A DNA stretch of 64,000 bases from Flavobacteriales bacterium (GCA_016712025.1 JADJRW010000009.1:16066-80065), one strand, 5' to 3'; shown: positions 11,864-29,278, numbered from the stretch's first letter. Program-made: numbers and translations. The notes: generated by a model not told the origin, from the sequence alone.

Positions 11864-13465
11864 ATGAAATTCGATCTTCCCAAGGAACTGTCGTCGATCA
11901 TCAAAGTGATCGGCGTGGGGGGCGGCGGCAGCAATGCCGTGAACCACATGTACGCCCAAGGCATCAAGGGCGTTGACTTCATCATCTGCAACACCGACAA
12001 GCAGGCGCTGGACATCAGTCCGGTGCCCGTGAAAGTGCAGCTCGGGCCCGAGCTCACCGACGGCCTCGGTGCGGGCTCCGTGCCCGATCGCGGCAAAGAC
12101 GCCGCGCAGGAGAACATCGATGAGGTACGCCAACTCCTCAGCACGCGCACCAAGATGGTCTTCATCACCGCCGGTATGGGCGGTGGCACCGGCACCGGCG
12201 CCGGTCCCGTGATCGCCAGCATCGCACGCGAGCTCGGCATCCTCACCGTCGGCATTGTTACCATGCCCTTCCAGTGGGAAGGCCGTAAGCGGAAGCAACA
12301 GGCCATGGCCGGGATCGAGGATTTACGCCGTTCGGTGGATACTTTGTTGGTGATCAACAACGATCGCCTGCGTGACCTCTATGGCAACCTGAGCCTGGAC
12401 AACGCTTTCGGATACGCGGACAACGTGCTCACCACAGCCGCGCGCGGGATCGCCGAGATCATCACCGTGACCGGTAAGGTGAACGTGGACTTCGAGGACG
12501 TGAAGACCGTGATGACCAACAGCGGCGCTGCCGTGATGGGCATGGCCGAAGCCGAAGGGGAGGAGCGTGCCTTGCGTGCCGCGCAGGAAGCGCTGGCTTC
12601 ACCGTTGCTGAACGACAACGATATCAAGGGCGCCAAGTTCGTGCTGCTCAACATCACCCACGGCACGCAAGAAGTGCTGATGGACGAGATCACGGAGATC
12701 ACCGACCACATCCAGGATGCCGCCGGCAGCAGCGCCGATGTGATCTGGGGCTATTGCAAGGATGAATCGCTCGGCGCGAAAGTGCGTGTTACAGTGATCG
12801 CCACCGGTTTCCAAGTGAATCCGGACACCGGTCTGATCGGTACCGCACCCGAGGCGCGCAAGGTGATCCCGCTCGATGCCGACGTGCCCACGATGATCAT
12901 GCAGCCGATCGTGAACCCGGTCGCCGTGACGCCGAAGCAGTCCGCTCCGATAGCGCCTCCAGTTCCCAGCGAGCAGCCCATGGAGCCGTATTTGAAGCCC
13001 GCTGCCCCCGTGGTGAACGAGGCGCCATCCACACCTCCTGTGGTCGCACCCTTCCGTCCGGAGCGCCCTGTGGAGTTCGAGGTGGTTAACAAGCAGCCCG
13101 CCGCGCCGGTGAGCGATGACAAGAAGGTGCATTCACTGTACGATGATGCGCCCCCTGCCACCGTCAACACGACTAGCGCCGACAACTCCGCGCAACGCCT
13201 TCCACCGGCCGAACACCAAGCCCGTGTGGAGGAGCGCCTTTCGCGTATGCGTGATCTCACCTTGCGCCTGCGTTCACCGAACGGCATCAACGACCTGGAA
13301 CGCGAACCCGCGTACATACGCAAGCGCGTTACCCTCACCGAAGGACCGCGCAGCACGGACAGTACCGTGAGCCGTTACACGCTGAGCGAGGACCAGGACG
13401 AGAGCGGAGAACGCCGTGTGGAACTGAAGAAGAACAATCCGTTCTTGCACGACAACGTGGATTGA
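11864..13465 (+). CDS. ftsZ: Cell division GTPase FtsZ
   Basis: Tubulin signature GGGTGTG and the T7 loop region. Long Pro/Ala-rich linker followed by a conserved C-terminal peptide (533 aa). A long FtsZ like this is typical for Bacteroidota. Confidence 0.95.
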   Translation: MKFDLPKELSSIIKVIGVGGGGSNAVNHMYAQGIKGVDFIICNTDKQALDISPVPVKVQLGPELTDGLGAGSVPDRGKDAAQENIDEVRQLLSTRTKMVFITAGMGGGTGTGAGPVIASIARELGILTVGIVTMPFQWEGRKRKQQAMAGIEDLRRSVDTLLVINNDRLRDLYGNLSLDNAFGYADNVLTTAARGIAEIITVTGKVNVDFEDVKTVMTNSGAAVMGMAEAEGEERALRAAQEALASPLLNDNDIKGAKFVLLNITHGTQEVLMDEITEITDHIQDAAGSSADVIWGYCKDESLGAKVRVTVIATGFQVNPDTGLIGTAPEARKVIPLDADVPTMIMQPIVNPVAVTPKQSAPIAPPVPSEQPMEPYLKPAAPVVNEAPSTPPVVAPFRPERPVEFEVVNKQPAAPVSDDKKVHSLYDDAPPATVNTTSADNSAQRLPPAEHQARVEERLSRMRDLTLRLRSPNGINDLEREPAYIRKRVTLTEGPRSTDSTVSRYTLSEDQDESGERRVELKKNNPFLHDNVD

Positions 13466-13564: not shown

Positions 13565-14010
13565 ATGGATCTCAAGGAACGTATCGACGCGGACATCAAG
13601 ACCGCGATGTTGGCCCGCGACAAAGACCGCTTGAACGCGCTGCGCGCGATCAAAAGCGCCATCCTGTTGGAATTGACCAAGGAAGGTGGTCAGGCCCAAG
13701 TTTCGGAGGAAGCGGGCGCCAAGCTCCTGCAGAAGTTGCACAAGCAACGCGCCGAGGCCGCCGCGATCTTCAACCAACAGGGAAGGGCCGATCTCGCTGC
13801 AGAGGACGAAGCACAAGCCAAGGTGATCGAGGCCTACCTGCCCGCGCGCATGAGCGACGCCGATGTGGAAGCGGCGGTGAAAGCCATCATCGTCAGCACG
13901 GGGGCCAGCGGCATGAAGGACATGGGCCGTGTGATGGGCGAAGCGAACAAGCAACTGGCCGGCAAGGCCGATGGCGGTGCCATCGCGGCGATGGTGAAGC
14001 GGTTGTTGGG
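13565..14010 (+). CDS. yqeY: GatB/YqeY domain protein; 3' end uncertain because the reading frame runs into the G/C homopolymer tract
   Basis: N-terminal ~147 aa (MDLKERIDADIKTAMLARDKDRLNALRAIKSA...AIAAMVKRLLGG) matches the YqeY/GatB-Yqey family, which is normally ~148 aa. The ORF-track continuation to 14533 is Gly/Pro/Arg nonsense derived from poly-G/poly-C. Confidence 0.7.
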
Positions 14011-15010
14011 GGGGGCCCCCCGCCTGCGGGGGGGGCGGGCCGGGGGGTTTTGCCCGGCCCGCCGGGGTTGCCCTCGGGGGGGGGGGGGGGGGGCCCGCCC
14101 GGGGCCCGCCCGGCGGGCGAAACGGGCGGGGGACCCCCCGGGGGGGGGGGGCGCCCCGCGCCCGGCGCCGGGGTCGGGGGGGTGGCGCGCCCCGCCAAGG
14201 GCGGCCGGGGCTTCAGGGGGGATCGTTCCAACAAGCCGCCCGAACGAACCCCGGCGCCCGGGGAGGGGGGGGGGCGCCCCGGGGGGACCCCGCCGCGCCG
14301 CGGCCGCCCCGCGCGCAGGGGTTGCAACGCCCCCGCAACACACGGCGGGGGAACCCGACCACAGGGTTGGGGCAGCGAGACAACACCCGCACGCCGCCGG
14401 CCGGGGGCAGGGAAAAAAATATTTCAATGGAGTTGCCCCCGCGCAAACACCGCCCCCGGCGACCCGAAGCCCGGGCCCGTTTGGGCCCCCGGGGGGGGGG
14501 GGGGGGCCCCCCCCTTACCGACCGCTAGGGTGAACTACCGCACTCGCGCGGGGCGCGGGGCGGGGGGGGTGCGGGGCGGCGCCGCCGCGCCGCCCCCCCA
14601 CGGGGGGGGGGGGGCTTGGGGCCGGGGTCGCGCTCGAACGAGACCCCGCGTGTAGGGGGCAGGCGGGCCGGGCCACCCCGCACGGGGGGGGGGCCGGCCC
14701 GCCCACATTGCGCGGGGCCGGCCCGGGGGCCGGAACTCCGCCGTGGTGGGGGCCCGGGGCGTGGGCGCGAGGACCACCGCGGGCGGCCGCCCCCCGAGAC
14801 GCGCGGGGGCGGGGCCACCGCCCCACACCGCGGGGGGGAGAGGGGGGCACCCCGGCCGGCCTCGATGTGTTTGTGGCCGGGGGCGGGGTTGGGGGGGGCG
14901 GAAAGCGGCGGGGGCTCCTCCCCGGCGCGGAAAGGACGGCCCGCCCGGGCCGGCGGAGGGGGTCGGGGCGGCCCGCGCGGGGGGGGGCGGGGGGGGGCGG
15001 TGGGGGTGTA
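13995..15010. other. ~1-kb tract of >90% G+C dominated by G and C homopolymers (runs of up to ~20); probably a non-biological assembly or base-calling artefact
   Basis: Seen directly, for example gggggggggggggggcccgcccggggcccgcc and gggggggggggggggcccccccc. All six frames give only Gly/Pro/Arg/Ala strings. It ends abruptly at ~15010 where normal sequence resumes. Confidence 0.6.
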
Positions 15011-15314: not shown

Positions 15315-16070
15315 TCACAACCGAGCCAGGCTGTCCATCAGCTCCTGCTTCTTGCGGCGGCTCACGGCGACGTTGGTGCCGTCGCTCATGATCACCTCGC
15401 CGCCTTCGCCGCGGATGTACTTCTTCACGTGCTTCACGTTGATGAGGTAGCTGTGGTGTACGCGCACGAACTGCTCGGGATCGAGGATATCCTCGAACTC
15501 CTTCAATGTGCGGCTGATCACCAGGCGCTTCTTGTCCTTCTGGTGGACCACCGTGTAGTTGCTGTCGCTCTCGCAGTACATCACCTCGTCCACATCCACC
15601 ATCTCCAAGCCGTCGGCCACGGGCAGTGCGATGCGGCGCTCGGCGGCAGCGGGCCGGGTCAGGTTCTTCAGCAGCGCCATGAACTGATCGGGGGTCTGCG
15701 GGGTGCGCATCTCCGCGCGTACCTTGTTGATGGCGCCCGCGAGTTCATCGGGGTCCACCGGCTTCAACAGATAGTCCAACGCGCTGAAGCGGATGGCCTT
15801 CACGGCGTAGCCTTCGTGGGCGGTGGTGAAGATGACGTGCGGGCGGTCCGGGCCGATGGCCTGCAATAGATCGAAGCCGGTCTGCTTGCCCATCTCGATA
15901 TCCAGGAAGAGGATCTTGGGCTTCACCTTGCTCAACAGTTCGATGCCCTCGGGCACGTTGTTGGCCATGCCCAACAGCGGCACGTCCGGATGCTTGCGTT
16001 CGAGGATGCCGCTGAGGGCATCGCGACAGTGTTGTTCGTCGTCAACGATCACGGCGGTGAGCTCGCTCAT
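15315..16070 (-). CDS. Two-component response regulator, receiver + LytTR DNA-binding domain
   Basis: Receiver motifs (VIVDDE...LFLDIEM...K) and a C-terminal LytTR domain (RVHHSYLINVKHVKKY, 'SDGTNVAVSRR'). Start set at MSELTAVIVDDE (internal to the ORF-track call). Confidence 0.88.
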   Translation of the reverse strand: MSELTAVIVDDEQHCRDALSGILERKHPDVPLLGMANNVPEGIELLSKVKPKILFLDIEMGKQTGFDLLQAIGPDRPHVIFTTAHEGYAVKAIRFSALDYLLKPVDPDELAGAINKVRAEMRTPQTPDQFMALLKNLTRPAAAERRIALPVADGLEMVDVDEVMYCESDSNYTVVHQKDKKRLVISRTLKEFEDILDPEQFVRVHHSYLINVKHVKKYIRGEGGEVIMSDGTNVAVSRRKKQELMDSLARL

Positions 16071-16171
16071 GGTGGGGTGGGTGGTAAACGAGGCGAAAAG
16101 ATAGGCGCCACGGCAAAGCAAAATGACAAAGGCCCCTCCCAGGGCCTCTGCCGTTCCTCCCAAACCTACCC

Positions 16172-16780
16172 TTAGTTCTTGGCTTCGGCCTCCTGCTCGG
16201 CGCGCTTCTGCTCGGTCCAGGCGGCCAGTTCCATCGTGGGATCCACGAAGGCGGCCACCTCTTTGCGCGCGCGCTTCACCGGGGCTTGGGCCAGTGCTTC
16301 CTCCACCGGGGCTTGCTTGCTCTCCAGGCGGGCGGTGTGCAGGTGCTCGTAGCCGAAATCATTGTCCTTGGTGTTGAAGGCGATCTTGCCCACCGGGCCA
16401 TCGTACTGTTGCTCGCCCTCGGCAGGTTGCGCCAGCAGGCTTACCTGGAAGTGGAAGAGGAAGTCCTTTTTCGCCTCTGCGTTCTTCGGAAGGCGGGCGT
16501 CGAACACCAGTTCCTTGGCGATGGTGCCGGGGAGCTCGAACCGCAGGCGGTACTCATGGCCCAAGGGCAGTTCCATTTGGAATTGGGCCAGGCCCTTATC
16601 CATGCGGTTGAAGGCGGCGCCGTCCTGGAGCACAGTGACCGACGCGCCTTCGAGCGGGTTGCTGCTGAGCACCTTGCCCTCGATGCGGAGCACATGGCTG
16701 GTCTCGTTGGCGGAAGCGGTGATCGCGATGGAAGCGATGGCGGCTTGGGCGGTGAGGCGGAGGAAGGTGAGGGCTTTCAT
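16172..16780 (-). CDS. Small secreted protein, CarboxypepD_reg-like (prealbumin-like) fold predicted; paralog 3 of a three-member family in this window
   Basis: Signal peptide MKALTFLRLTAQAAIASIAITASA. The core GKVLSSNPLEGASVTVLQDG...GHEYRLRFELPG resembles carboxypeptidase-regulatory-like domains. Same architecture as the ORFs at 26794..27303 and 28654..29163. Confidence 0.6.
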   Translation of the reverse strand: MKALTFLRLTAQAAIASIAITASANETSHVLRIEGKVLSSNPLEGASVTVLQDGAAFNRMDKGLAQFQMELPLGHEYRLRFELPGTIAKELVFDARLPKNAEAKKDFLFHFQVSLLAQPAEGEQQYDGPVGKIAFNTKDNDFGYEHLHTARLESKQAPVEEALAQAPVKRARKEVAAFVDPTMELAAWTEQKRAEQEAEAKN

Positions 16781-16821
16781 TTTGGTGGGAGATTCGGAGG
16801 GCGTTGTTCGTCTTTCGCGAC

Positions 16822-16924
16822 CCAAAACAACGTCGGGAGTGGGGGTAGGGGTGAGCGCGGGCAGCGGGGAGGGAGTAGGTGGCGGTGTATGGGGTCAGGG
16901 GTAGCAGGCAGGAGCAGGTGCAGG
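16822..16924 (-). promoter_or_regulatory. Putative LytTR-box promoter of the secreted-protein gene: direct-repeat box plus a Bacteroidota-type -7-like element
   Basis: In gene sense, CCGCCACCTACT (plus strand AGTAGGTGGCGG, ~16874-16885) with a weaker partner (AGCAGGTGCAGG ~16913-16924). TTGTTTTG (plus CAAAACAA ~16823-16830) lies 43 nt upstream of the ATG. Coordinates approximate. Confidence 0.45.
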
Positions 16925-17083
16925 AGGCGCCCAACGTGCAATGCGGGGCGAGTGGGTTGGTACGGCACGGAAGAGAACGATGTGATGTTTGGCCTCGGCT
17001 GGGGACCCAGTGAGGCTGTGTCTCCTGAAATGGAAGAACCCCACGATCCGGGGACCGCAGGGCTCTTTCAGAGAAGCGCGTTG

Positions 17084-17356
17084 TTATTCGGTGACGAAGT
17101 TGCCTTCTGGGGTGATCCAGATCCGGGTCATGTCCGCATCCGTGCGTATCGCGGGTTCCGTGGTAGTGGTGCCCGACGGTGGGTCGCTATCGGCTCCATC
17201 GGTGCTGGCGACAGGCGTGGTCGCGCTCAGTTCATTGTTCTCGGTCTCTTCCGTCGCGGGGGCGGTGCCTTGAGGTGCGACCAATGCATCCTTGGTGCAG
17301 GAAGCGGTGAGCAGCAGGAACATGTAGAGGGCGGCGAAGGTGGTGTAGGCTTTCAT
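17084..17356 (-). CDS. Small acidic Thr/Ser/Pro-rich lipoprotein (90 aa)
   Basis: Lipoprotein signal MKAYTTFAALYMFLLLTASC (lipobox LTAS|C). Low-complexity mature part. Sits between the TPR kinase and the secreted-protein gene on the same strand. Confidence 0.55.
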   Translation of the reverse strand: MKAYTTFAALYMFLLLTASCTKDALVAPQGTAPATEETENNELSATTPVASTDGADSDPPSGTTTTEPAIRTDADMTRIWITPEGNFVTE

Positions 17357-17397
17357 GGCAGTTGATTTTTTTGTGGTCATCGTTGTTGATGATGGGC

Positions 17398-17469
17398 CAA
17401 AGCAAATGCCGTGTACCGAAGGGACCATTCGCCGTCGAGCAAGTGGGGGTTGGAGGGAGCAGGTGGGGG
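17398..17469 (-). promoter_or_regulatory. Putative LytTR-box promoter of the lipoprotein gene
   Basis: Plus-strand AGCAAGTGGGGG (~17438-17449) and AGCAGGTGGGGG (~17458-17469), 20 bp start-to-start. TTGCTTTG in gene sense (plus CAAAGCAA ~17398-17405) lies 42 nt upstream of the ATG. Box-to-(-7) spacing is the same as at two paralog promoters. Confidence 0.5.
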
Positions 17470-17591
17470 AACTCGCGTTCTTGGGAGTATGCCCGGACTG
17501 GCCACAGGCTCAAGCTATCCGCGTTGAAGACGAGATCTTCGTTAGGTCTTATAGACTTGCATTGAAGCTAGCGGCTTGCAGCCAGCGCGTT

Positions 17592-19546
17592 CTAGTGCGC
17601 GTGCATCAATGGCATCTCCACTTCCACCCGCGTGCCTTGCGGAACATCTACGTAGCGGAAGCCTGCGGTGCCGCCGTGCTGTTTCTGAACGAGATCCAAA
17701 CGGGAACGTGTGATCGCGGTGCCGAGACTGGTTTTTTTCGTTGGCGTATCACCCGGTGGCTGTGCCGCCGGTTCCTTCTTGGCGTTGCGCCCAACACCAT
17801 TATCCTCTATGATCCATACCAGCTGCTTGCCGCGTGCTTCTACTTTCAAACTGATGTGCCCTTTGCCCTCCTTGCCCGCAATGCCATGCCAGATGGCGTT
17901 CTCCACGAAGGGTTGCACCACCAGCGGGGGCACCACCACCTCTTCCGGATCGAGCGCATCGTCCACCGTGATGGTGAAATCGAATTTCTCCTGCATGCGC
18001 TTGCGCTCCAGATCCATGTAGCCGCGCAGCGTTTCCAAGTCGTCCTTCAAGGGGACCTCGCTGTGGCGGCTGTTCTCCAGCACGCTGCGCATCACCCGGG
18101 CGAACTTGGTGAGGTAGCTGCTGGCGCTGTCCTGATCGTTCTTCTGCACATAGGCGTTGATGGAGTTGAGCGCGTTGAAGATGAAGTGCGGGTTCATCTG
18201 GCTGCGCAAGGCGCGTGTTTCTAATTGCGCGGCATCCTTCTCGAAACGCTCCCGCCTACGCCGTCTGTCGCTAATGAAGAAGAAGGTGCCACCACCCATC
18301 ACGAGGATGGCCCCGCCCATCAGCGCCAAAGCGTTGTTACGGTTACGATCCGCCCGTAAACGCTGGATCGTTCGGTCCTTCTCCAATTGAGCGACCTCAT
18401 TGGCATGGGCCAGGCTATCCGCGAGCTGTTGCTTGTCATATTCGGCACCTGCGGTGATGAGGACCACTTCCGCCTTGCCTTGGGTGGCCTCTAGGGAATC
18501 GCGGCCGATCATCAGCGTATCGAAGTAACTGAGCGCCTCCTTGTACCGCTTTGCCTTCCGCAAGGCCTCGACAAGTTCATCCAATACGCCAACGGCCACA
18601 TCCAGGTTGCTGATCTCCTGTGCGATCCGCAAGGCGTTCTTGTGATCAGCCACCGCGTTCTCCCAATCGTTCAGACGCCCATGGTATCGGCCCAGATCGG
18701 AGTAGTACCTGGATATCCGCTCCTTGTCGCCCAGCTTTTGGGCGAGGACGAACATGCGTTCAAGGCACTTGAACGCCTTGGCATTGTCGCCGATCTTCTG
18801 ATATAGTTCGGCCTTCTGCGACAGCACGCGCAACGTGCGGTAATCGCTGTGGGCCAAGGCCAGGAGGTCCTCGTTGATCGTCAAATGCCGCAACGCGAGC
18901 GTATCATTTCCCGCTATCTGATGCGCCGCAGCGATGTTCTCATGGGCGAAGGCCAGTCCCAGGGTGTCGTGGGTCGCCTCTGTACGACTGCGCGCTTGTT
19001 CATACCACCTCATCGCCTCCCCGGCGCGTCCGAATATCAGGTACGCATTGCCGATCCATGTGGTCGCGCGGTTCGCGTTCTCGTGGTGGCCATCCTTGGA
19101 GGCCGCGGCCAGGCTCTCTTTGAAGGCCATGACGCAGCGCGTGGAGTCTTTCAGGTTGAGATAGAGGTAGCCCAGTTCGAAGTACGCTTCCGACGCTATG
19201 CCGTCATCCCCGGCCTTAGTCGCATGTTTGATGCTCTGGTTCAGGTGAACGATCGCCTCCGGGTAGTTGCTCAGCGGAGAGCTGTATACATAGCCGATGT
19301 CCACTTCCATTTGCGCCATGCCCGCGACCCATCCAAGACGCTCCGCTAGGGCCAGCGCCTTCTGGAAATGGTCCAAGGCAGTGAACGGTTCGTTGTTCCA
19401 CAGTTCCCGGCCCAAGGACCCCAGCAGGTTGACCTTGTTCGTGTCCTCCCCGCGCATTGACCAGCGCCTGCTTCAGGCTGTCGATCTGCCCCTGGCAGAA
19501 AAGTACTGAAGAGGAGGAGGACCGAAGGCAACAGGGATCGCTTCAT
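17592..19546 (-). CDS. Sensor histidine kinase, periplasmic TPR repeats + single TM + LytS-type His_kinase + HATPase (one apparent frameshift near 19450)
   Basis: Signal peptide MKRSLLPSVLLLFSTFLPG in ORF 19346..19546, then a frame change into ORF 17592..19457. TPR-like repeats, TM ALALMGGAILVMGGGTFFFI, MNPHFIFNALNSINAY (PF06580-like) and a C-terminal ATPase (IEDNGVG). Confidence 0.8.
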
Positions 19547-19584
19547 TCAGGCGGCATTGGACCGACGGACGGGAATATAGATCG

Positions 19585-21819
19585 CTATCCCGCCCCGTCG
19601 ATAGGCAGGCTCAGTTCCACCCGCGTTCCTTGCGGCAGATCGATGTACTTGAAGCCTGCGGGTTTGCCCTTCTGTTTCTGGACCAGGTCCAGCCTTGCCT
19701 TGGTGATCGTGGTGGCAAGTGAGGTCTTCTTCTGTGTTGTCTCTTGGCTCGTGACCTTTGGTGCATGGCGGCCCACGCCGTCATCCTCGATGGCCATCAC
19801 CAGTTCACTCCCGCGCCTTTGTACGCTGAGGGTGATGTGCCCCTTCTCCTCCTTCCCCGCCATACCGTGCCAGATGGCGTTTTCCACGAACGGTTGTATG
19901 ACCAAGGGGGGTACATGTACCTCTTCCTGATCGATGGTGGGATCCACTAGAATGGTGTAGTCGAACTTCTCGCCGCTCCGTGCGCGCTCCAGGTGCAAGT
20001 AGTTGTCCAGCGCTTCCAGGTCGTCCTTCAGCGGCACCTCGCTTTGACGGCTGTTCTCCAGTACAAGTCGCATCAACCGGGCAAAGCGGGACAAGAAAGC
20101 TGCGGCCTTGTCAGGCTCGTTCTTCTGCACAAACGCGTTGATGGAATTCAGCGCGTTGAAGATGAAGTGGGGGTTCATCTGGCTGCGCAGCGCTTGTGTT
20201 TCCAGGTGTGCGGCTTCCTTCTCGAAGCGTTCTTTCCGCCGCTTGCGGTCCAACCAGAAGAAGACGCCACTGGCGATCAGGACCAGCGCCCCGACGATGA
20301 GCAGCAGTCGGCTTCGGGTCTTTTCCTGCGCCGCTTCCAACCGGGCCACTTCTGCGCCCAAACGTTCGCGCTCCACTGCTTGCGCGCTCTCTATGCTGTC
20401 CGCCAGCATCTGGGCTTGGAAATCCGTTTCGATCTGCCGCTTCATCAGCCCCATGCGGAACTGCTCGCGGCCTAGCGAGTCGGAGGTGGTTTGGTAGAGT
20501 TCGTGCATCCGCAGCGCGGCGCGCGTGTCGTTGCGTTGTTTGTACACCTCGTAGAGCAAAAGGCTGGCACGGTTCACCAGTGAGAGATCGTTGCGTGCCC
20601 TGCCCCGGTTTAAGGCCCGCTCGCCGTAGCGCAGTGCTTCCGCGAAAGCGCCCTGCGCGAAGGACAGTTCGCCGAGGTCCACGGTGGGGTCCACATCCTC
20701 GAGCCCTTCTTGTTCGGCGAGGGCGTCGCTGGCCTTCAGAAAGAGCAGCGCACTATCCGTCCTGGTCAACGCGATCCAACAGAGCCCGATATCGCGCAGC
20801 AGTTCGGCCCGGCGCAGCACTACCGCACCGCTCGTTCCTCCGGGCAGGGCAACACCCGGCATGCTGCCGCCCACCAGGGCCAGCCCTTGGCGATGGTGCG
20901 ACAAGGCGGTCGCGTACTCCTTTGTGCGCATACGGAACCGGCCCATGCGGTCGTGGAACCTGGCGATGTCCGCAGCGACACCGCGGTCCTCGGCACGCTT
21001 CAGCCCGTCGGTGATCAGTTGCAATACCTGCTTGTCCTGCGCGGTGATGTCGTAAGTGGTGATGAGCAGGTCGATCGCGCTCATGGCGCCACTGGCGTCG
21101 CCCACTTCTTCGAAGCCTTTGTAAGCGCTTTGCGCATGGTCGAAGGCAGCTTCCAGGCCGATCCGTGCGGCGTGACGCGCGAGGGCCATTTGGGTGTAGG
21201 CCTCATTGCGCCTGTCGCCCATGGCTTGGTCCATTTTCAGCAGGCGCTGGCAGGCGAGGATGGCTCCGCGATGGTCGCCGAAACGGGTGCGGAGTTGTTC
21301 TTCCTGCCACAGCATCTGGCGCATACCGGCGGAATCCTTCAGCGCCGCGAGGGCCTTCGATCCCGCTTCCATGGTGGCGATCGCGCTATCCTGCCGACCT
21401 TCCTTCCAATGTGATTCAGCCAGCCAGTAACGCACATCCGAGCTGCGCATCCCCATACCCGTCGGGGCGATGGCCAGCGCGGCACGATAGGAAGCGCGGG
21501 CGCGGGACCCAGCGTTCTCCGAACCATACAAGAACGCCTCGCGGATGTGCAGTTCCATCAGCAGGCTGTCCGCTACTCGTTGCTCTGGTCCCAAGCCTGC
21601 CTTCAGGGCCTCGACCTCGGCGATCATGGTGGCCACTGCTTTATGGGCCTGGCCTAGAGGAACCGAACCGTTCGAAAGTGTGCTTGCCCGGGCAAGCAGT
21701 GCTTTCAGGTCCGCGCTGGCGGCCGAAGCCGTGGCCGGAGCAACCCAGGTGATCAGGCAAGCCGCAGCCCAGAGCGCCGCGCCATGGCCACCGATCTTGC
21801 AACGCATCGTACCCCGCAT
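19585..21819 (-). CDS. Sensor histidine kinase, periplasmic TPR repeats + TM + LytS-type His_kinase + HATPase
   Basis: Signal peptide (MRCKIGGHGAALWAAACLITWVAPATASA), long TPR region, TM LLLIVGALVLIASGVFFWL, MNPHFIFNALNSINAF and an ATPase domain. Stop is 38 bp upstream of the next kinase. Confidence 0.82.
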   Translation of the reverse strand: MRGTMRCKIGGHGAALWAAACLITWVAPATASAASADLKALLARASTLSNGSVPLGQAHKAVATMIAEVEALKAGLGPEQRVADSLLMELHIREAFLYGSENAGSRARASYRAALAIAPTGMGMRSSDVRYWLAESHWKEGRQDSAIATMEAGSKALAALKDSAGMRQMLWQEEQLRTRFGDHRGAILACQRLLKMDQAMGDRRNEAYTQMALARHAARIGLEAAFDHAQSAYKGFEEVGDASGAMSAIDLLITTYDITAQDKQVLQLITDGLKRAEDRGVAADIARFHDRMGRFRMRTKEYATALSHHRQGLALVGGSMPGVALPGGTSGAVVLRRAELLRDIGLCWIALTRTDSALLFLKASDALAEQEGLEDVDPTVDLGELSFAQGAFAEALRYGERALNRGRARNDLSLVNRASLLLYEVYKQRNDTRAALRMHELYQTTSDSLGREQFRMGLMKRQIETDFQAQMLADSIESAQAVERERLGAEVARLEAAQEKTRSRLLLIVGALVLIASGVFFWLDRKRRKERFEKEAAHLETQALRSQMNPHFIFNALNSINAFVQKNEPDKAAAFLSRFARLMRLVLENSRQSEVPLKDDLEALDNYLHLERARSGEKFDYTILVDPTIDQEEVHVPPLVIQPFVENAIWHGMAGKEEKGHITLSVQRRGSELVMAIEDDGVGRHAPKVTSQETTQKKTSLATTITKARLDLVQKQKGKPAGFKYIDLPQGTRVELSLPIDGAG

Positions 21820-22002
21820 GCGGCGAAGGTCGGGCGGAACCACCCCTGGTCCGTGCTCGGCACGGCTAACGACTTTGCGGGATGGATCGACCAACTACCC
21901 GGCCGGATCGTTTAGCTTGGCGTCCCTCTTACCAAGGAGTTTCGAGCTGGAACGGCGGTGACCGGGAGATCTCGGGATGGAACAATGATCGATCGGACCC
22001 TC

Positions 22003-23119
22003 ATGCGGACCATGCATACCGATAGCGTACTTCACCGCCACGGCGCTTGCGCGTGGCCTGGCGCGATGCTGTTTCTCGCGCTCCTTTCCGGACCCGCCGC
22101 TCGGGCACAACAGACCCTGGTCCGTGCGGACGGATCACAACTGAGCGGTCAAGTCCAGCGGATATCCGCCGATCATGTGGATTTCTCCGTGGCGGGTGGC
22201 CGCTCGGCCGGTACCACCAGCGTGCCTTGTGGCGAGGTGATTTGCATCGTTGACGGATCGCTTCGCGTGCATACCCGCCCCTGCGGCGGCAATGCGGGCG
22301 ATCTTGCGGGGAACGAGCCGACCTGCAACGCCTTGCTGCGGAATGACAACCAAGTGCTCAAAGGCACCATCACCCGGTGGGCCGATGATCGCTTCACCAT
22401 CCGCACAGGGCGTGGCGATGTGAACGTACCGCGCAGCGATGTGGCAGGAGTGCTTTCGCCGGGGCATGTGGAGTTCTCGCTCTCACCCGATCGGCTCAAG
22501 GCGCTCATGGCGAACGGCTCCGTGCTGAACGCCCTGAACGATGCGAGCAAATGCCCGCCCGTTGTCGAACCGCGCACCGTGCAGTATTCCGAGAAGTGGG
22601 TCGCGCCCAAGTTCGAACGCGCGGCCAGCGAGACCGCTTCAGAGGACCTCGACTTCGTGCGCTTCAAGGATGTGGCCCTCGAGAAGACCAAGCGCCTCAG
22701 CGGCTACATCGAGCAGATCACCAACAAGGAGCTCAGCAGCATTGTGAAGGACAAGGCGGTGGACCAAGCCATCGGGCTCTTCGAGCGGGCGGACAACATC
22801 GTGCATGTCTCCAACGCCACCACCGGCATTCAGAAGGAACACCTCATCACGCGCTATCTCGGCAGTCACCTGCGCATGCTGAACTACGACCTGGTGAAGA
22901 TCGAATGGGCCGACATCCAGTACGCCAGTGATTTTGAACTGCAGATGGACGGCAGCTATACCGCGGTGGTCTCGATCCAACAGCGCTTCACCGGCCGTAA
23001 CGAACAAGAACGTGCAGATCAAGCTGCGCACCTACCAGAAGGTGCAGGAGGGCCGCACCACGGTGCTCTGGGATGTGTTCCTCGGCGATATCGGCGTGGT
23101 TTCCACCAAGGCGGAATGA
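22003..23119 (+). CDS. Secreted hypothetical protein (~370 aa), one apparent frameshift near 23005
   Basis: Signal peptide ...WPGAMLFLALLSGPAARAQQ. The C-terminus in ORF 22928..23119 ends with a stop overlapping the next ATG (ATGA). The ORF-track fusion with the next gene results from the frameshift. Confidence 0.55.
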
Positions 23120-23889
23120 TGCGCACCCTCGCGATATTCTTCGCGCTCGCCTGTGCCGCGGTGGTGGTCGCGCAGACACCCGACCAGCAGTACGAACTGT
23201 GCGTGAAGCAGTTCGATGAGTTCCGCGATCGATTCAATGGCGTTTATAAAGGGACCGTGCCTCCCGGCGTGGATCCTCCGTCGCGGGAAGTGTTGCTGCA
23301 CAGCGTGCTCAGCGCCGAGGTCGCGGAGGTCGATCAGGATGCGTTCGTGCAGGCTATGCTTACCGCCGAACCGTCGGTCGCGCTGGAACTGGATGGCGTA
23401 CCCTGGCTCGCCCGCGTTACCTGCCGCACATGGACCAATGGCGATACCACGGATATCGCTTTTTGGCTGGTGCGCGAAAAGGTGGGCGCGGCCCGGAAGT
23501 GGTCGATCCTGAGCAGCGATCTCGCCCGCATCAATACGAACACGCAACTCTACATCGACTCCAAGAGCCATGAGTACGGCTTCATCGATCTGCTCCGCGT
23601 GGACGATGGTGGGCATCCCGGGGTCTATCCTTACATCGGCCCGCCGGGGATCGCCGGGTTGTTCGAATTGCAGGACGCGTTGCTGCGGTCGGAACTGCAA
23701 GTGGTCGGCATCAAGCGGATCGAAATGCATCTTCTGCAACTTCCAGGATGGTTCCTCCTGGTGGAATACCGCCCCACCCCGGTCCGTGCCAAAGACTTCA
23801 CACCCTCCGGCTGGAACATCACCAAACTCGTGCGCATGCAGGATGGCGATAAAACCGCCTACCTCTGGCACCAAGTGCTTGGTTTGTGA
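23116..23889 (+). CDS. Secreted hypothetical protein (257 aa)
   Basis: Signal peptide MMRTLAIFFALACAAVVVAQ. In frame and translationally coupled with the neighbours. Confidence 0.6.
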   Translation: MMRTLAIFFALACAAVVVAQTPDQQYELCVKQFDEFRDRFNGVYKGTVPPGVDPPSREVLLHSVLSAEVAEVDQDAFVQAMLTAEPSVALELDGVPWLARVTCRTWTNGDTTDIAFWLVREKVGAARKWSILSSDLARINTNTQLYIDSKSHEYGFIDLLRVDDGGHPGVYPYIGPPGIAGLFELQDALLRSELQVVGIKRIEMHLLQLPGWFLLVEYRPTPVRAKDFTPSGWNITKLVRMQDGDKTAYLWHQVLGL

Positions 23890-23893
23890 TCCC

Positions 23894-26718
23894 ATGTCCC
23901 TCCGTCGCGCGCTACCGATCCTCTTCGTTATGGCCACAACAGTGGTCAGCGCATTGCCGGGGGATAGCCTCACCGTACGCGACAAGGGCTTGATCAACGC
24001 GTTGGCGGAAAGCACCTTCAAGCGGTATATCCTGCTGCTCGACAACATCGCCGGCATGGAAGCCAGCGATGATGAAAGCACCCTCCTCGTGCATGAGCTC
24101 ATCACCGGCGCATGCACCGGTCGCGACCGCATGTTCCTGCGGCCCGATGTGCGCATCGAGGACAATGTGGATCCCACGAACGGATCACAGACCGCGGGCA
24201 AGGACCGCCCTGTTGAAGAATACGCCAACGATCTGCTCCTCTACTTCCAGAGCAACGATCCACTGCGCACCGCGCTGGAGGCGAAGCTGCTGAAGATGCG
24301 CGAGCCGGATGTTTCAGAGACCGCCTTCACTCAGATCCTCTACGAAATGCGCTTCCTCGGGCGGCACAGCCAGTCCACCGAGCCCTACACCATCCATCGC
24401 CGTGTGCTGGAGTTCGTGGCCGAACCACGGGCGGGGGGCGGCTGGGACGTGGTGATCGCTTCGGACAATTTCTTCGACCCCTCGGCCACCTTCGCCGAGA
24501 CGCTCCTGGAGCAGGATATGGATTCCCTCGCTCGCGCCGGGCGAAAGGACATCAAGCAGCTCACGGCGGCAGCGGCCGAGTACCGCAGCGCGTTCGAGCA
24601 GGAGCAGCACAGGGAAGAGCAACAACGCGCCGAACGGCGCCAGGCCTTCGAGACCGCCATGACGGCCGCGCGCGACCAGTTGACCAACGGCGAATTCGAA
24701 GGAGCGACGAACCTCCTGGAGCAAGCGCGTTCCATCGACCCCCTGGCTGTGGAACCGCTCGTATTGTTGAACGAGACCCGCCGCGCCATGGAGCGTAAGC
24801 GCCTGAAGGATGAGGCGGACTTCGCCTCGGCATGCGAACAAGGCGCGGCTCTCAATGGCATGCGGGCCTACGAACGTGCGAAGTTGTCCTATGAGCGCGC
24901 ACTGCTGATCAAGCCCGGGAGTACCGAGGTGAAAGCACTGGTCGACGGCCTGAGCGCGATCCTGGTGAAGAAGAAGGACAGGGAGAAGTTCCTCGCGCTA
25001 GGCGATCAGGACAAGGCCCTGTCACAGGTGCAAGCATCGCTGAAGGAACCCGGCCGGGGCGGCGATGTGGAGTTGATGGTGCTCGAAGCGCGTGTGCTGG
25101 TCGCCAAAGAGCTCAGTGGCCAGGCCGTGCCGCTGCTCAATACCGTGCTGCGACGCGAACCCCGCTATCTCGATGCCCTGGCACTGCGGGCGTCCATACT
25201 GGAAAAGAGCAACGTGGCCGATCAACAGGCCGCCGTGGCGGACTACTACACGCTGATGCTCCATGATCCCTGGCAGCCCGCCTACCATCATCGCCTCGCA
25301 CGCCTGTTGTGCAACGTCCAGGGGAAATGTGATGAGGCCATGGAAGTTTTGGAGCAGGCGAAGACCAAGGCGCCCAATGATCCCGAGACACGCTACCAGA
25401 TGGGTGTATTGCTGGCGTATCGCGCGCGCCATGCGGACGCGCTCGTGCGGTTCGATGAGGCGCTCGCCATGGACAGTGCCTCTGCGCCTTGCCACCTCGC
25501 CCGCGGCCTCAGCCTCTTGGAAATGGACCGTGTTGCCGAAGGGGAAGGGGCTGTTCTCACCGCCCAGCGCACAGGGCTCTCTCCCCAGGAACGCACCGGG
25601 ATGACCCTGCTCGCGCAACAGCACCTGTCCAAAGCGAAGGAACTGCAAGGCCTCAACGCGTTCGCGGAGGCCGACCATCAGTTCCTGCTGGCATGCGTCC
25701 TGGATCCCGAGCAGAGCGAGAACCGTTTGCTCAAGGCGCGCAACCTGATGCGCTTCGAGCAGTACACCGCCGCCATCACCGATCTGGACCGCTACATCGA
25801 GAAGGCCGTTACACCCTTCGTCGGTTTCCTGGAGCGCGGCAATTGCCACTTGGGTGCGGGCAACTACGATCTCGCGCTCAAGGATTTCGAGACCATCCTG
25901 AGCAACAATGTGGAGAGCATGCGCCAACCCGCCATGCTCGGCAAGGCCCGCGCCTATTTCGCCAAGGGCTGATCCGGCGAACGCGGAATCACTGCTGAAG
26001 GGCGTGCTGAAAACCGAGAAACGCAACGGCGAGGTCCTCGCCATGATGACCAAGATCTGTCTTGCCGCCGGGCGGTTGATGAGCGACGGGGTTCGGGGAA
26101 CAGGCGGCCGATGCCGACAAAGCGAACCATGCGTACGTCTTCGATCTCGGTCTGGCCTACCAGGCACTGCTGAACGACAATGCCGCTGTGCGCTGTTTCG
26201 AGAAAGCGATCACCCTGGGTGCCGATCGCGCCGATGCCAAGAAGCAGGTGGGCCGTTCGGCCATGCTCGTGAACAATTTGAAAGAGGCCCTTCCCGCCTT
26301 CGATGAATCCTTGCGCATCCGCGACGATGTGGAATGTGGCCGCTGGCGCGCGGACTGCCTGCGCGAGACCGGCAAGTACCAAGAGGCGCTCGAACAACTG
26401 AACCTGGTATTCGACCGCAACGAGGCGATGAAGCGGGATGTGAGCATCCATGTCGACCTCGCGATGCTCTATGTGCTCAACGATCGGCTTCCCCTGGCCA
26501 AGGACTATATCGCCGAGGCCGAGGCGTTGGATCCTTTGTACCGTCGCACCCAGATCACGAAAGGCGCCTACCTCTATCGCGCAGGGCAGCAGGAAGACGC
26601 GGTAAGGTTGCTCCGCAGTTTGGTGAACAGCGGCGAAGTGAAGGAGGATGACCTGCGCAAAATGCCCGTGTTGAAAGAAGTGCTCGCTACGAAGGCGTAC
26701 CGCGAGTCGGGTCGCTGA
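23894..26718 (+). CDS. Large TPR-repeat protein with signal peptide (~940 aa), two apparent frameshifts near 25965 and 26095
   Basis: The ORF-track 5' extension to 23570 overlaps the previous gene in another frame. MSLRRALPILFVMATTVVSA is a signal peptide. Many TPR-like repeats. The sequence continues across frames 23894..25972, then ~25966..26095 (DPANAESLLKGVLKTEKRNGEVLAMM...), then ..26718 (ADADKANHAYVFDLGLAYQALL...). Confidence 0.65.
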
Positions 26719-26793: not shown

Positions 26794-27303
26794 TCACATC
26801 GGCACCGCGCAGCTCATGTTCCCGGAGGCGATCAACAGATCGGGATCCAGGTCGATGATGCGCGTCTCACCCGTGGTGGCATCGAACATCACCTGGCCCA
26901 TCGGTTTGTCATAGCAGAGTTGCAGGTCGGTGGGCTGGGGTTCCAGCGTGAGGTCGAGTTCCACGCGGGCGGTGCGCTCGATCACGCCTTCCTTGCTTGG
27001 TGCATTGTGCGTGTCGATCAGCATCGTCTTGCTGATGTAGCCGGGACGGTCGAGCGTGAGCGTCACTTGATCGTTCACGGGGATGAAGAACTCGAACTTG
27101 CCATTGGGGCGGAGCGCGACTTCCATTGTCTCGGTGCCATCGGTCACTTGCATGTGGACGTTCTCCATATCGGCGGAGGCGACCAGCAGGCGGCCTTCGA
27201 AGGCAACGAAGGCCTGGGCATTGGCAGCGACTGTGATCGTAAGACCGGCGACGATCATTGCGGCTTGCAACAGAGTGCGCTTGATGTGGGGCTGGAGGTT
27301 CAT
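26794..27303 (-). CDS. Small secreted protein, CarboxypepD_reg-like; paralog 1
   Basis: MNLQPHIKRTLLQAAMIVAGLTITVAANAQA signal peptide. ~45% identical to the ORF at 28654..29163 by eye (AFEGR..., HMxVTDGTETM, DTHNAPS, RTxxV). Start at the internal Met of the ORF-track call. Confidence 0.65.
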   Translation of the reverse strand: MNLQPHIKRTLLQAAMIVAGLTITVAANAQAFVAFEGRLLVASADMENVHMQVTDGTETMEVALRPNGKFEFFIPVNDQVTLTLDRPGYISKTMLIDTHNAPSKEGVIERTARVELDLTLEPQPTDLQLCYDKPMGQVMFDATTGETRIIDLDPDLLIASGNMSCAVPM

Positions 27304-27357
27304 GGTAGTGGGGGGTGTTTGGGTTTGGTTGAGGTTGGTTGTTTCTGTTCGACGGGT

Positions 27358-27430
27358 CAAAACTGCCATGACCAGCCCCGCTGGCATAGCGGCGCCGAGC
27401 AAGTGGCGGGGGTGAGGAAGCAAGTGGCGG
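27358..27430 (-). promoter_or_regulatory. Putative LytTR-box promoter: two perfect 12-bp direct repeats AGCAAGTGGCGG spaced 21 bp, plus a -7-like element
   Basis: Plus-strand AGCAAGTGGCGG at ~27398-27409 and again at ~27419-27430. CAGTTTTG in gene sense (plus CAAAACTG 27358-27365) lies 55 nt upstream of the ATG. Confidence 0.55.
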
Positions 27431-27502
27431 AGGAGGGATAGCCTATCTTGTGGAGGCGCCGACTACCTTATCCCAACAGGTCATCCAGGAAGCCGAAAGA
27501 AC

Positions 27503-28456
27503 ATGCTCAGGGCACGCTTTCTATTCCTCACAAGTCTTGTCCTCGCCACAATGGCGACGGCGCAGAACCTTGTGCCCAATCCGAGCTTCGAGGATACGGT
27601 GGATTGTGAAACGCCGACCCAATGCCAACTGCTCAAGGCTACGCACTGGCGCAACCCGAACACCGCCACCCCCGATGTGTGGGATGCCGACCTGGTGCGT
27701 GAGTGTGGTTTTCCTATGGATTCCACGGAGATCTTCGGATATCAGGCACCTTTCCATGGATCACGATGCAGTGGGTTATATTTTTGGTTCGGACCGGGAA
27801 GCTCAGATACGAGGGAGTACCTCATGATACAGTTGACATCTTCCCTCACCTCGGGGTCTGCCTATCGGGTGGGTCTGAATTATTCCCGTCGTGATGACTT
27901 TAAATGGGCCACGGACCACATTGGTGTGTGGTTGGGAACGGATAGCGTGTTCGAGAACACACCGAACTGGCTGAGCCTCACCCCCCAGGTGCGCTTGTAC
28001 GACCCGAACAGCCCCTACCTCAGCGAGGCGGACCTTTGGGTGGAATTGGCCGATACCTTATTCGCCCAAGGCGGAGAGCATTGGATGATCATCGGGAATT
28101 TCGATGTGGCCGATTCGGTCAATGGCATCCAAGTGATACCGGTGGGCTGGTCCTATGCCTATTACTACATCGACCAAGTCAGCCTGGTGCACTTGGGGGA
28201 GGTGCAGGCATTGCCGGAACCATTGTTGCAGGTTCAGTTGATCGCAGGATCTCTTCAGATACAGCTTCCTTTCGGCTTTCAAGCGCAAGAGATCACTGTA
28301 CGAGATGTTTCTGGAAGATCGGTTCTCACTCAACCGATCCGGTCTGCATCGAGCCCAATACAAGTGGACCTGGAAGATCTCTCTGCGGGCATTTACGTGC
28401 TTACGGCGGTTGGAGGAGCATGCGGAACATCGGTTCGGTTCGTCAAGGAGGAATAG
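27503..28456 (+). CDS. T9SS C-terminal-domain secreted protein (317 aa); gene body noticeably lower in G+C than its surroundings
   Basis: Signal peptide MLRARFLFLTSLVLATMATAQNLVPNPSFE. C-terminal ~80 aa has the T9SS type-A sorting-domain pattern (...GIYVLTAVGGACGTSVRFVKEE). The 27700-28450 stretch is visibly AT-richer (~50% GC by eye). Confidence 0.65.
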   Translation: MLRARFLFLTSLVLATMATAQNLVPNPSFEDTVDCETPTQCQLLKATHWRNPNTATPDVWDADLVRECGFPMDSTEIFGYQAPFHGSRCSGLYFWFGPGSSDTREYLMIQLTSSLTSGSAYRVGLNYSRRDDFKWATDHIGVWLGTDSVFENTPNWLSLTPQVRLYDPNSPYLSEADLWVELADTLFAQGGEHWMIIGNFDVADSVNGIQVIPVGWSYAYYYIDQVSLVHLGEVQALPEPLLQVQLIAGSLQIQLPFGFQAQEITVRDVSGRSVLTQPIRSASSPIQVDLEDLSAGIYVLTAVGGACGTSVRFVKEE

Positions 28457-28653
28457 TGCCTCGAGCGAGAACTCGAAGCCCGAACTCCGGCGCGAGCTTC
28501 ATTGTGCAACAGAAAGGGGTCGCGGAAATGCGGCGGAAACCACCCCTCATTCCCCTCCTTATGTGCTCGGGCGAGCGATCACCCTCAGGAGGCGAGGTCA
28601 ATGCAGAAAGCCGCCCCGGTCCCCCGAAGCGGCTCTTCCGATCGACGTTCTCT

Positions 28654-29163
28654 TTACTGCATCGCGCTCGCTTGCGTGTCGACGGCGATCTTCTCCTGCG
28701 GCATGTTCAATATCACCGTGGTGAGGCGGCCATCGCAGTCCACGAAAGCCACCGCGCCCACTGGCCCGGCATAGGCGAGTAGCTGGCCTTCCGGCTGGCG
28801 CTCCAGTTCCAGATCGAAACCTACTTTCTCGGTGCGGGCGAAGACGCCTTCGGTGCTGGGCGCGTTGTGCGTATCGAGCAACACCTCCTTGGTGAGGTAG
28901 CCGGGACTGGCGATGTGTAACGTTACCTTTTCGTCCACGGGCACGAAGAACTTGTAGTTGCCGGTGCGGCCCAGCTCTACGTCCATGGTTTCGGTGCCAT
29001 CGGTCACCGTCATGTGTACCGGGTGCAGGGCGTTTTCCTGGAGGATCACGCGGCCCTCGAAGGCGACGTAGGCCTGGGCGTTGGCCAGTGTGCAGAGGGA
29101 GATCCCGGCGACGATCAAGCCGGCTTGGAAGAGGGTGCGGGTGATGTGGGGCTGGAGGTTCAT
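28654..29163 (-). CDS. Small secreted protein, CarboxypepD_reg-like; paralog 2
   Basis: MNLQPHITRTLFQAGLIVAGISLCTLANAQA signal peptide. Paralog of 26794..27303. Located directly downstream of the decayed TPR kinase on the same strand. Confidence 0.65.
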   Translation of the reverse strand: MNLQPHITRTLFQAGLIVAGISLCTLANAQAYVAFEGRVILQENALHPVHMTVTDGTETMDVELGRTGNYKFFVPVDEKVTLHIASPGYLTKEVLLDTHNAPSTEGVFARTEKVGFDLELERQPEGQLLAYAGPVGAVAFVDCDGRLTTVILNMPQEKIAVDTQASAMQ

Positions 29164-29205
29164 GGCAATGGGGTTTGTTAGGTGCGTTGTTGTCGTTGGC
29201 TGGGA

Positions 29206-29278
29206 CAAAACTCATCGTACCCGAAGCCGGCGCGTAGCCTGGATGAGCAAGTGGCGGGTGGGGGGAAGTAATTGGTGG
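29206..29278 (-). promoter_or_regulatory. Putative LytTR-box promoter of paralog 2
   Basis: Plus-strand AGCAAGTGGCGG (~29246-29257) and degenerate AGTAATTGGTGG (~29267-29278), 21 bp apart. GAGTTTTG in gene sense (plus CAAAACTC 29206-29213) lies 43 nt upstream of the ATG. Box-to-(-7) spacing identical to 27358..27430. Confidence 0.5.

Follow-up and report, generated by a model that had tools for sequence, protein, structure and literature searches.

Small exported proteins as candidate outputs of a multi-kinase LytS/LytTR system in a Flavobacteriales genome

A stretch of 64,000 nucleotides (nt) from a Flavobacteriales bacterium (GCA_016712025.1, JADJRW010000009.1:16066-80065), here called the window, contains a sensory island in which LytS-type histidine kinases with helical or tetratricopeptide repeat (TPR) sensor domains lie near a LytTR response regulator and several genes for small exported proteins. 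We favour, with moderate confidence, a model in which many sensors act on one BtsR/LytR-like regulator, which in turn activates those exported-protein genes that are preceded by a short repeated element (box). The observations behind this model are the domains of the proteins, the boxes and their conservation, the terminators, the conserved gene neighbourhood and the modelled fold of Sec202, a secreted protein of the island. An earlier reading of this DNA from the sequence alone (the sequence-only reading) had described a minus-strand module of five genes, namely two kinases (HK1 and HK2), a small lipoprotein (Lipo90), Sec202 and the regulator, and had taken the exported proteins to be part of the signalling system rather than unrelated cargo. 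The conserved neighbourhood and the LytTR-type double boxes uphold this link between the small genes and the kinase-regulator system. The module itself gives way to four predicted transcription units, and the five genes are part of an island that extends over ~15.3-33.8 kb (Table 1). HK1, Lipo90, Sec202 and the regulator are as had been described, but HK2 is not a single open reading frame (ORF).

The double box has the consensus CCACYTGCTC-N11-CCACYTGCTC, with a period of 20-21 nt. Eight copies of the single box CACYTGCTC occur in the window, where 1.3 are expected, and none of 100 shuffles reached this number. Five of the copies lie on the coding strand 5′ of Lipo90 (two), Sec202 and two paralogues of Sec202, Sec209′ and Sec184′. 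A position weight matrix (PWM) for the double box, built from 22 sites in orthologous and related loci, scored 41 bits at Sec209′ and 31 bits at Sec184′, compared to a maximum of 18.6 in 20 shuffles, and found no further site above 12 bits in the 64 kb. As the Lipo90 site has a period of 20 nt in the window, versus 21 nt in the related loci L009, L010 and L217, it is missed by this fixed-length matrix; here the direct repeat CACCTGCTC...CACTTGCTC lies 89-109 nt 5′ of the start codon. The sequence-only reading had given each small gene its own boxed promoter, which holds for Lipo90 with its perfect double box, whereas Sec202 has one perfect box and one with a mismatch, at a non-canonical spacing. 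L009 and L010 have a perfect proximal Sec202 box, the window one with a single mismatch, and the distal box is degenerate. Two more features set the window apart from L009 and L010, a 10-nt insertion that lies between the proximal Sec202 box and the -7-like element (16831-16872) and a Lipo90 double-box spacer shorter by 1 nt; they reflect either real promoter drift or assembly error.

The sequence TTG(C/T)TTTGG or CAGTTTTG is found ~31-34 nt after the proximal box, and the start codon 35-45 nt beyond. Both resemble the Bacteroidota -7 consensus TAnnTTTG (PMC7641319). LytTR sites consist of two repeats of 9-11 nt with a spacer of 11-13 nt, and YpdB binds a GGCATTTCAT repeat (PMC4847170); AgrA sites are centred near -60 (PMC4227749). 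The boxes of Lipo90, Sec209′ and Sec184′ are laid out according to the LytTR rule, and their binding by a LytTR protein is a prediction. An origin of the boxes as promoters of an extracytoplasmic function (ECF) sigma factor was rejected, since they form a tandem direct repeat with a two-turn period 5′ of a housekeeping-type -7 element. A metagenome-wide scan for double boxes returned at least 120 stretches, essentially all of them chance matches; among the matches listed, a correctly spaced -7-like element was present at one of 133 sites, an unrelated one. In two unrelated metagenome contigs (L160 1369-1482 and L172 5129-5200) the box pattern recurs every 42 nt, apparently as a tandem repeat that shows no sign of a connection to the system described here.

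To follow the neighbourhood across genomes, we used a regulator-based scan, which gave 24 loci from metagenome-assembled genomes (MAGs) of Flavobacteriales with regulators 57-98% identical, and 56 paralogous loci (~42-48% identical) from Chitinophaga, Maribacter and others. The orthologous set comprises these 24 loci together with L003 and L217, both retrieved separately; the closest relative is L009 (JAGNSU010000028), and the DNA inspected comprises the 64-kb window and loci of up to 20 kb. Nearly all orthologous loci in which the contig shows this place have a TPR-LytS kinase gene immediately upstream of the regulator. The genes around this pair are rearranged. L009 has the same gene order as the window, and L010 and L217 have one kinase, a Lipo gene, Sec202 and the regulator. 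The order in L011, L031 and L013 is kinase, 192-aa Sec-family gene, 193-aa protein, 72-aa tail peptide (a secreted peptide with the C-terminal motif of Sec202), regulator, yqeY and ftsZ; in L003, two type IX secretion system (T9SS) cargo genes separate the kinase from the 192-aa Sec gene in an otherwise identical order. L016 and L019 show kinase, regulator, two Sec genes, yqeY and ftsZ; L014, L021 and L024 show kinase, Sec and regulator; and in L017, L020, L023 and L025 one or more tail peptides lie upstream of kinase and regulator. Despite these rearrangements, the Sec domain, the tail motif or other box-driven exported genes are found in most of 25 orthologous regulator loci, whereas Sec domain and tail occur in none of the 56 paralogous LytTR loci. 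The Sec family and the tail peptides thus accompany the orthologous regulator, as expected from the sequence-only reading. Absence of the small genes from orthologous loci would have refuted that reading; the Sec family is not absent from them, and Lipo90 itself is confined to the nearest relatives (three homologues).

The boxes follow the same distribution. In the orthologous loci (L001-L031 and L217), a double box with a 21-nt period precedes Sec-family, tail-peptide and Lipo90-orthologue or other lipoprotein genes, and it also stands before distant Sec-family members in L091 and L096. The boxes stand on the coding strand, solely upstream of exported-protein genes. The 56 paralogous loci contain one chance-like match only, and boxes are missing from L032, a relative whose regulator is 57% identical. 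In L014, L021 and L024 the Sec gene had been considered a promoterless, operon-embedded third signalling component; this was rejected, as those genes are double-boxed.

Terminator-like hairpins follow both Lipo90 and Sec202, from which we predict four transcription units: HK1-HK2, Lipo90, Sec202 and the regulator. L009, L010 and L217 share the hairpin that separates Sec202 from the regulator, and an analogous hairpin is found after the 72-aa gene, before the regulator, in L003, L012 and L031.

Table 1. Features of the sensory island, with positions counted from the first nucleotide of the window
Feature	Position	Strand	Description
Response regulator	15315-16070	-	REC + LytTR; Pfam Response_reg 4.5e-18, LytTR 7.3e-22
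Candidate regulator -7-like element	16095-16103	-	TATCTTTTC; possible own promoter
Hairpin, Sec202/regulator	16125-16152	-	strong, intrinsic-terminator-like; 12-bp stem, T-rich tail
Sec202	16172-16780	-	signal peptide ending ASA (next residues NE); beta-sandwich aa ~30-150, linker, C-terminal helix with tail KEVAAFVDPTMELAAWTEQKR
Sec202 -7-like element	16822-16830	-	TTGTTTTGG; conserved in 8/8 aligned orthologous promoters
Sec202 boxes	16873-16920	-	perfect CACCTGCTC 16912-16920; one-mismatch CACCTACTC 16873-16881; 39 nt start-to-start
Hairpin after Lipo90	17037-17056	-	terminator-like
Lipo90	17084-17356	-	small acidic lipoprotein; signal peptide ending LLLTASC; mature isoelectric point 4.05
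Lipo90 -7-like element	17397-17405	-	TTGCTTTGG; 31 nt downstream of proximal box
Lipo90 double box	17437-17465	-	CACCTGCTC-N11-CACTTGCTC; perfect; repeat and regular-expression scans
HK2	17592-19546	-	second TPR-sensor LytS-type kinase; interrupted; longest intact ORF 17592-19457
HK1	19585-21819	-	744 aa; signal-peptide-like N-terminus, helical periplasmic domain ~470 aa, transmembrane segment, His_kinase PF06580, HATPase_c
Sec209′	26794-27303; double box 27397-27426	-	169-aa Sec-family paralogue without tail
Sec184′	28654-29163; double box 29245-29274	-	169-aa tail-less paralogue; distal box degenerate
HK3	29404-31650	-	third TPR-sensor LytS-type kinase; at least 3 frame changes for read-through

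On the sensor side, HK1 and HK2 both match the Pfam families PF06580 His_kinase (2.9e-24 and 1.5e-23, respectively) and HATPase_c. As each has a signal-like N-terminus and a single strong transmembrane (TM) segment (residues 501-525 in HK1, 405-425 in HK2) followed by a basic stretch, their N-terminal domains of 400-500 aa are predicted to be extracytoplasmic (periplasmic). This agrees with the location given by the sequence-only reading, which had also assigned TPRs to both; the assignment is solid for HK2 (TPR_12, 4.5e-23), but every Pfam TPR match in HK1 is under the cut-off. The HK1 domain weakly resembles the TPR region of the L003 kinase (26% over 193 aa, E=1e-8), and its single-sequence AlphaFold model is all-helical, with stacked helices, at low confidence (pLDDT 60). 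The short distance that had been noted between the two kinase genes was confirmed at 38 nt. The sequence-only reading had counted two kinases for one regulator. This regulator is the only LytTR regulator in the 64-kb window, and a third TPR kinase, HK3, adds to the two. HK3 adjoins an OmpR-type regulator and HisKA kinase pair (31671-33782), which makes it the positional orthologue of the L003 kinase. The transmitter modules of the three kinases are 65-78% identical (78% between HK3 and HK2), and the sensor domains are almost unalignable (HK1 and HK2, ~23% over 87 aa).

The HK2 interval is 1955 nt long, which is not divisible by 3, and crosses three reading frames. In L009 (1013-2962) an intact HK2 orthologue of 650 aa is 98% identical to the repaired window sequence, and alignment with it shows one additional T in the run at 19499-19502 and one additional G in the run at 19448-19451 of the window. 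The GGGG run of CCAGGGGCAG had been a candidate for the first frameshift and is ruled out by this alignment, which places the frameshift in the T-run. As these are homopolymer indels and the window contains many other frameshifts, they are probably sequencing errors; HK2 may otherwise be a genuine pseudogene.

The tandem arrangement of HK1 and HK2 is not conserved in two of the relatives. L010 (6357-8553) and L217 (7093-9279) each encode one hybrid kinase of 728 aa that consists of an HK1-type sensor (84%) and an HK2-type transmitter (89%), with the switch point inside the H-box NPHFIFNALNSINA. Most simply, the tandem paralogues would have recombined, with loss of the HK1 transmitter and the HK2 sensor, and the tandem pair thus appears to be evolutionarily labile. 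As the hybrid joins an HK1 sensor to an HK2 transmitter, this suggests that the transmitters are interchangeable towards the regulator.

Judged by their sequences, the kinase transmitters and the regulator place the system in the LytS/LytTR family (BtsSR, YpdAB, LytSR). Like Escherichia coli BtsS/BtsR (YehU/YehT) and YpdA/YpdB and Staphylococcus LytS/LytR, it combines kinases of the PF06580 and HATPase_c type with a REC and LytTR regulator, whose top NCBIfam matches are BtsR (8.8e-43; 146 bits versus a cut-off of 246) and LytR (112 bits versus 375). Unlike in these systems, the regulator stays below both equivalog cut-offs. The candidate targets resemble the YpdB GGCATTTCAT sites in having two direct repeats of ~10 nt with an 11-nt spacer (PMC4847170), and likewise are small separate transcription units near the system. 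They encode small exported proteins, in contrast to the transporters or holin-like proteins of the known systems. Further differences are the three kinases per one regulator and the sensor, a large periplasmic TPR or helical domain with a single TM segment that gives no Pfam match to the polytopic 5TM-LytS and GAF arrangement.

A Bacteroidota kinase with a periplasmic TPR input is known in Porphyromonas gingivalis FimS, whose signal is unknown (PMC11053733). The TPR region of HK2 weakly matches the NCBIfam model HK_Porph_FimS (2.3e-11), but only the TPR part aligns, and the score of 42.7 bits compares to a model cut-off of 600. FimS/FimR has another type of transmitter and regulator, and we know of no boxed small exported proteins associated with it.

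In the model that we favour, the island of this activated-sludge Flavobacteriales MAG would work as follows. HK1, HK2 and HK3 would each expose a different helical or TPR domain to the periplasm and, through similar cytoplasmic LytS/YehU-type transmitters, would most likely converge on the sole LytTR regulator of the window. The phosphorylated regulator would bind the double box as a tandem dimer, with the proximal copy ending ~33 nt 5′ of the -7-like element, and would activate short monocistronic units (box, promoter, gene, terminator) at Lipo90, Sec202, Sec184′ and Sec209′. On this reading the small proteins are most likely the direct transcriptional output of the regulator at the cell envelope. 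We infer the phosphotransfer from kinases to regulator, the binding of the regulator to the boxes, and activation rather than repression.

Several points weigh against this model. HK2 and HK3 are frameshifted as assembled, and may thus be pseudogenes. The Sec202 promoter has one perfect and one near-perfect box at a non-canonical spacing, together with the 10-nt insertion. No box was found before HK1-HK2 or the regulator in the window by pattern and PWM scans, so that no autoregulation or autoinduction is evident; a possible box ahead of the regulator is seen in L026 only. In relatives, boxes also precede genes for exported proteins of other kinds (TonB_C-like, MORN-like and a 689-aa LVIVD protein), so that the regulon may exceed the Sec and tail families or a closed signalling loop. 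Lastly, the assignment of the boxes to this regulator is drawn from adjacency and co-occurrence.

The Sec202 and Lipo90 proteins are identical to MBK8339241.1 (IPK99_04225) and MBK8339242.1 (IPK99_04230) of a Flavobacteriales bacterium MAG in NCBI, both annotated as "hypothetical protein". Searches of Pfam, NCBIfam and PDB sequences gave nothing usable for Sec202, Lipo90, the tail peptides, the 193-aa protein or a lipoprotein of L017. Sec202 itself has no Pfam match at E<0.1 and no PDB sequence match, and six homologues were found in a word-indexed search of 5.8 billion proteins. In an exhaustive search, a profile of Sec202 and its window paralogues matched 1511 cluster representatives (E<=1e-3). 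No member of this Sec family reached any Pfam or NCBIfam cut-off; the closest match, CarboxypepD_reg, scored 17 bits versus a cut-off of 32.3, in two of ten distant members. An AlphaFold model of Sec202 from a 60-sequence alignment (pLDDT ~97 over residues 30-150) has an all-beta sandwich that a linker connects to a C-terminal helix (residues 181-201). Foldseek searches of the PDB with this model gave weak matches only (E ~1e-3, TM-score ~0.3), which were enriched in transthyretin-like or CarboxypepD_reg-type sandwiches (best matches 6fb3, teneurin; 9hfj, SusC N-terminal extension; 5aq0; 2nsm), among them the transthyretin-like domains of teneurin and of carboxypeptidases D and N. As there is no Pfam match and the Foldseek matches are weak, the CarboxypepD_reg likeness proposed by the sequence-only reading survives at most at the level of the fold. 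The predicted sandwich would resemble the seven-stranded CarboxypepD_reg/transthyretin-like domains (PF13620 and PF13715, as in the SusC N-terminal extension and carboxypeptidase D/N), from which the Sec family differs by extra C-terminal strands, a conserved FVDPT helix and the lack of a Pfam match.

The C-terminal helix carries the conserved motif (R/K)xEVAxFVDPTxxLAxW(V/T)ExxR. This tail closes the short members and stands mid-protein in the long ones (290-400 aa); in relatives it also stands alone, in proteins of 70-85 aa that have only a signal peptide and a basic linker besides it. In another lineage, one long-form member of 347 aa (L092 8001-9044; also in L093 and L094) is the immediate neighbour of yqeY-ftsZ, where the dcw cluster ends. 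Its FVDPT motif is internal, its C-terminal module (..TEYR(K/H)V.H.YG..YFF.NG..CS) is conserved, and no kinase, regulator or boxes are present around it in L092-L094. As these long forms lie beside yqeY-ftsZ without any part of the signalling system, the basic function of the Sec family would be independent of signalling, and the family may have had its ancestral place beside the division cluster. A further gene, flanked by the 192-aa Sec gene and the tail-peptide gene, encodes a protein of 193 aa (L003 10633-11214; orthologues in L011, L012, L013 and L031). This protein has no obvious signal peptide and no Pfam match, its sequence pattern is reminiscent of the Sec sandwich, weaker copies are present in L017, L020, L023 and L025, and it is absent from the window lineage.

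Lipo90 has a low-complexity body rich in Thr, Glu, Asp and Pro and a conserved C-terminus, MxRIWITPEGNFVTE. The three homologues are all that was found among the 5.8 billion proteins; L017 encodes a similar acidic lipoprotein in the same position. From the lipidated Cys onwards Lipo90 reads C-T-K-D-A, and its counterparts in L009 and L010 read C-A-K-E-A, each with one acidic residue, while the optimal Bacteroidota surface-export (LES) motif is C-X-K-(D/E)2-X (PMC5080379). As this is a partial surface-export-like motif, Lipo90 may leave the periplasm for the cell surface.

It is possible, if on the whole unlikely, that the exported proteins also signal, with Sec202 (by its FVDPT..LAAW tail) and/or Lipo90 binding the TPR domains as ligand, decoy or chaperone. 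They would thereby provide positive feedback (autoinduction) or negative feedback. The latter is known from CpxP-CpxA and MgrB-PhoQ, in which small envelope proteins are induced by, and feed back on, their own two-component system; the analogy would be one of function, a small exported or membrane protein under system control in the compartment of the sensor, as neither sequence nor fold relates these proteins and feedback is hypothetical here. The products and the sensor domains share an extracytoplasmic compartment, and TPR domains commonly bind peptides. Stand-alone boxed tail peptides of 70-85 aa lie beside kinase-regulator pairs in at least 10 loci, where they formally recall Gram-positive LytTR pheromone genes, and the co-localisation survives rearrangement, with the small genes on either side of the regulator or between it and the kinase. 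However, the tail is nearly invariant beside TPR domains that are almost unalignable (HK1-type alone in L217, L003-type elsewhere), which is not expected of a ligand-receptor pair. The tail-less paralogues Sec184′ and Sec209′ are equally box-driven, the long-form members beside yqeY-ftsZ have no kinase, regulator or boxes, and Lipo90 is limited to close relatives and carries the partial surface-export-like motif.

A more specific form of such signalling would be a Bacteroidota counterpart of Gram-positive peptide autoinduction, in which boxed tail proteins and the 70-85-aa peptides are sensed by the LytS-type kinases. Its signal would be the Sec-exported R-x-E-V-A-x-F-V-D-P-T-x-x-L-A-x-W helix, which either the TPR domains or a conserved segment of the kinases close to the membrane would detect in the periplasm; we regard this proposal as doubtful. 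The system shares with the Gram-positive pheromone circuits (Agr, ComCDE, Blp, Pln) a LytTR regulator and direct-repeat boxes before genes for small exported products that adjoin kinase and regulator, and some boxed genes in relatives encode secreted peptides of 70-85 aa. Unlike the Agr, Com and Blp circuits, its kinases are of the PF06580 type with one TM segment instead of HPK10 polytopic receptors, and its products have Sec or lipoprotein signal peptides, with no double-glycine leader or AgrB processing. No gene for a dedicated (ABC) exporter was found in the module or the island. Another difference is that the kinase and regulator genes of the window have no box, and a terminator separates Sec202 from the regulator. 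The locus is not an Agr/Com-type circuit.

We consider it improbable that the boxes are bound by a regulator encoded elsewhere, or are a non-regulatory repeat, with the adjacency as a legacy of synteny. The link between regulator and boxes is a prediction, the surrounding promoter DNA is C-rich, which inflates similarity, and further LytTR or unrelated regulators may lie beyond the 64-kb window and the loci of up to 20 kb. Against this stand the fixed period of 20-21 nt, the fixed distance to the -7-like element, the placement of boxes on the coding strand upstream of exported genes only, and a layout that equals the published LytTR rule. The boxes also track the clade of orthologous regulators (at least 73% identity) and are missing from L032 and the 56 paralogous loci. 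Still less probable is that the small genes are independent hitch-hikers between kinase and regulator: each has its own promoter and terminator, Lipo90 is lineage-specific and the region is prone to rearrangement, with a variable yqeY-regulator insert and T9SS cargo genes inserted in L003, but the neighbourhood is conserved in most of the 25 orthologous loci and a common box motif links small genes at two separate places in the window.

The second of these places, 26794-33782 on the minus strand, is a second copy of the same theme, with the boxed genes Sec209′ and Sec184′, HK3, and the OmpR-type regulator and HisKA pair. A T9SS-cargo-like gene (27503-28456, plus strand) lies between Sec209′ and Sec184′, and the whole stretch mirrors the gene order around the L003 kinase. 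Boxed genes of other kinds in relatives (L018 1522-3100; L025 6499-7100 and 9103, minus strand; L029 7787, minus strand) encode a TonB_C-like protein of 123 aa, a MORN/YwqK-like protein of 167 aa and the LVIVD-repeat protein of 689 aa; among them is also a conserved lipoprotein of 181-183 aa directly downstream of the regulator.

The window has a G+C content of 62% and includes the end of the dcw cluster (ftsZ 11864-13465, then yqeY). The assembly is rich in frame disruptions, such as same-strand ORF overlaps within housekeeping genes and the three or more frame changes in HK3. At 2906-5496 and 21958-25972, long ORFs with gene-like codon bias overlap on the same strand, which suggests that the assembly has further frameshifts, both in dcw genes and in genes for TPR or uncharacterised proteins divergent from HK1. 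A stretch of ~1 kb at 14010-15010 has 84% G+C and consists mostly of long G and C homopolymer runs. It begins exactly at the expected stop codon of yqeY, so that the yqeY ORF continues into it, and it does not resemble what relatives have in its place. Their interval between yqeY and the regulator measures ~75 nt in L003-type loci and 0.95 kb, of normal sequence, in L009; in L010 and L217 it spans 2.2-2.4 kb and includes Kelch-repeat genes. The stretch is probably an assembly or polishing artefact across a variable region.

Bacteroidota genomes contain many LytS-type TPR-sensor kinases paired with LytTR regulators, and in the literature searched no signal, DNA site, regulon or targets were described for such systems. 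The locus offers a concrete candidate regulon, with a box of two 10-nt repeats at a fixed distance from the -7 element and uniformly exported targets. It is also a natural case of multiple sensors, and of sensor swapping by recombination, onto one regulator. The analysis further defines an unannotated protein family of ~1500 representatives (E<=1e-3), made up of hypothetical proteins with a transthyretin-like sandwich and an FVDPT helix. If the autoinduction proposal were true, it would represent an undescribed peptide signalling of the Gram-negative envelope, or between cells, with a closed feedback loop. More generally, any feedback of the exported products on the sensors would amount to a way of signalling by peptides or proteins that is new for the Gram-negative envelope.

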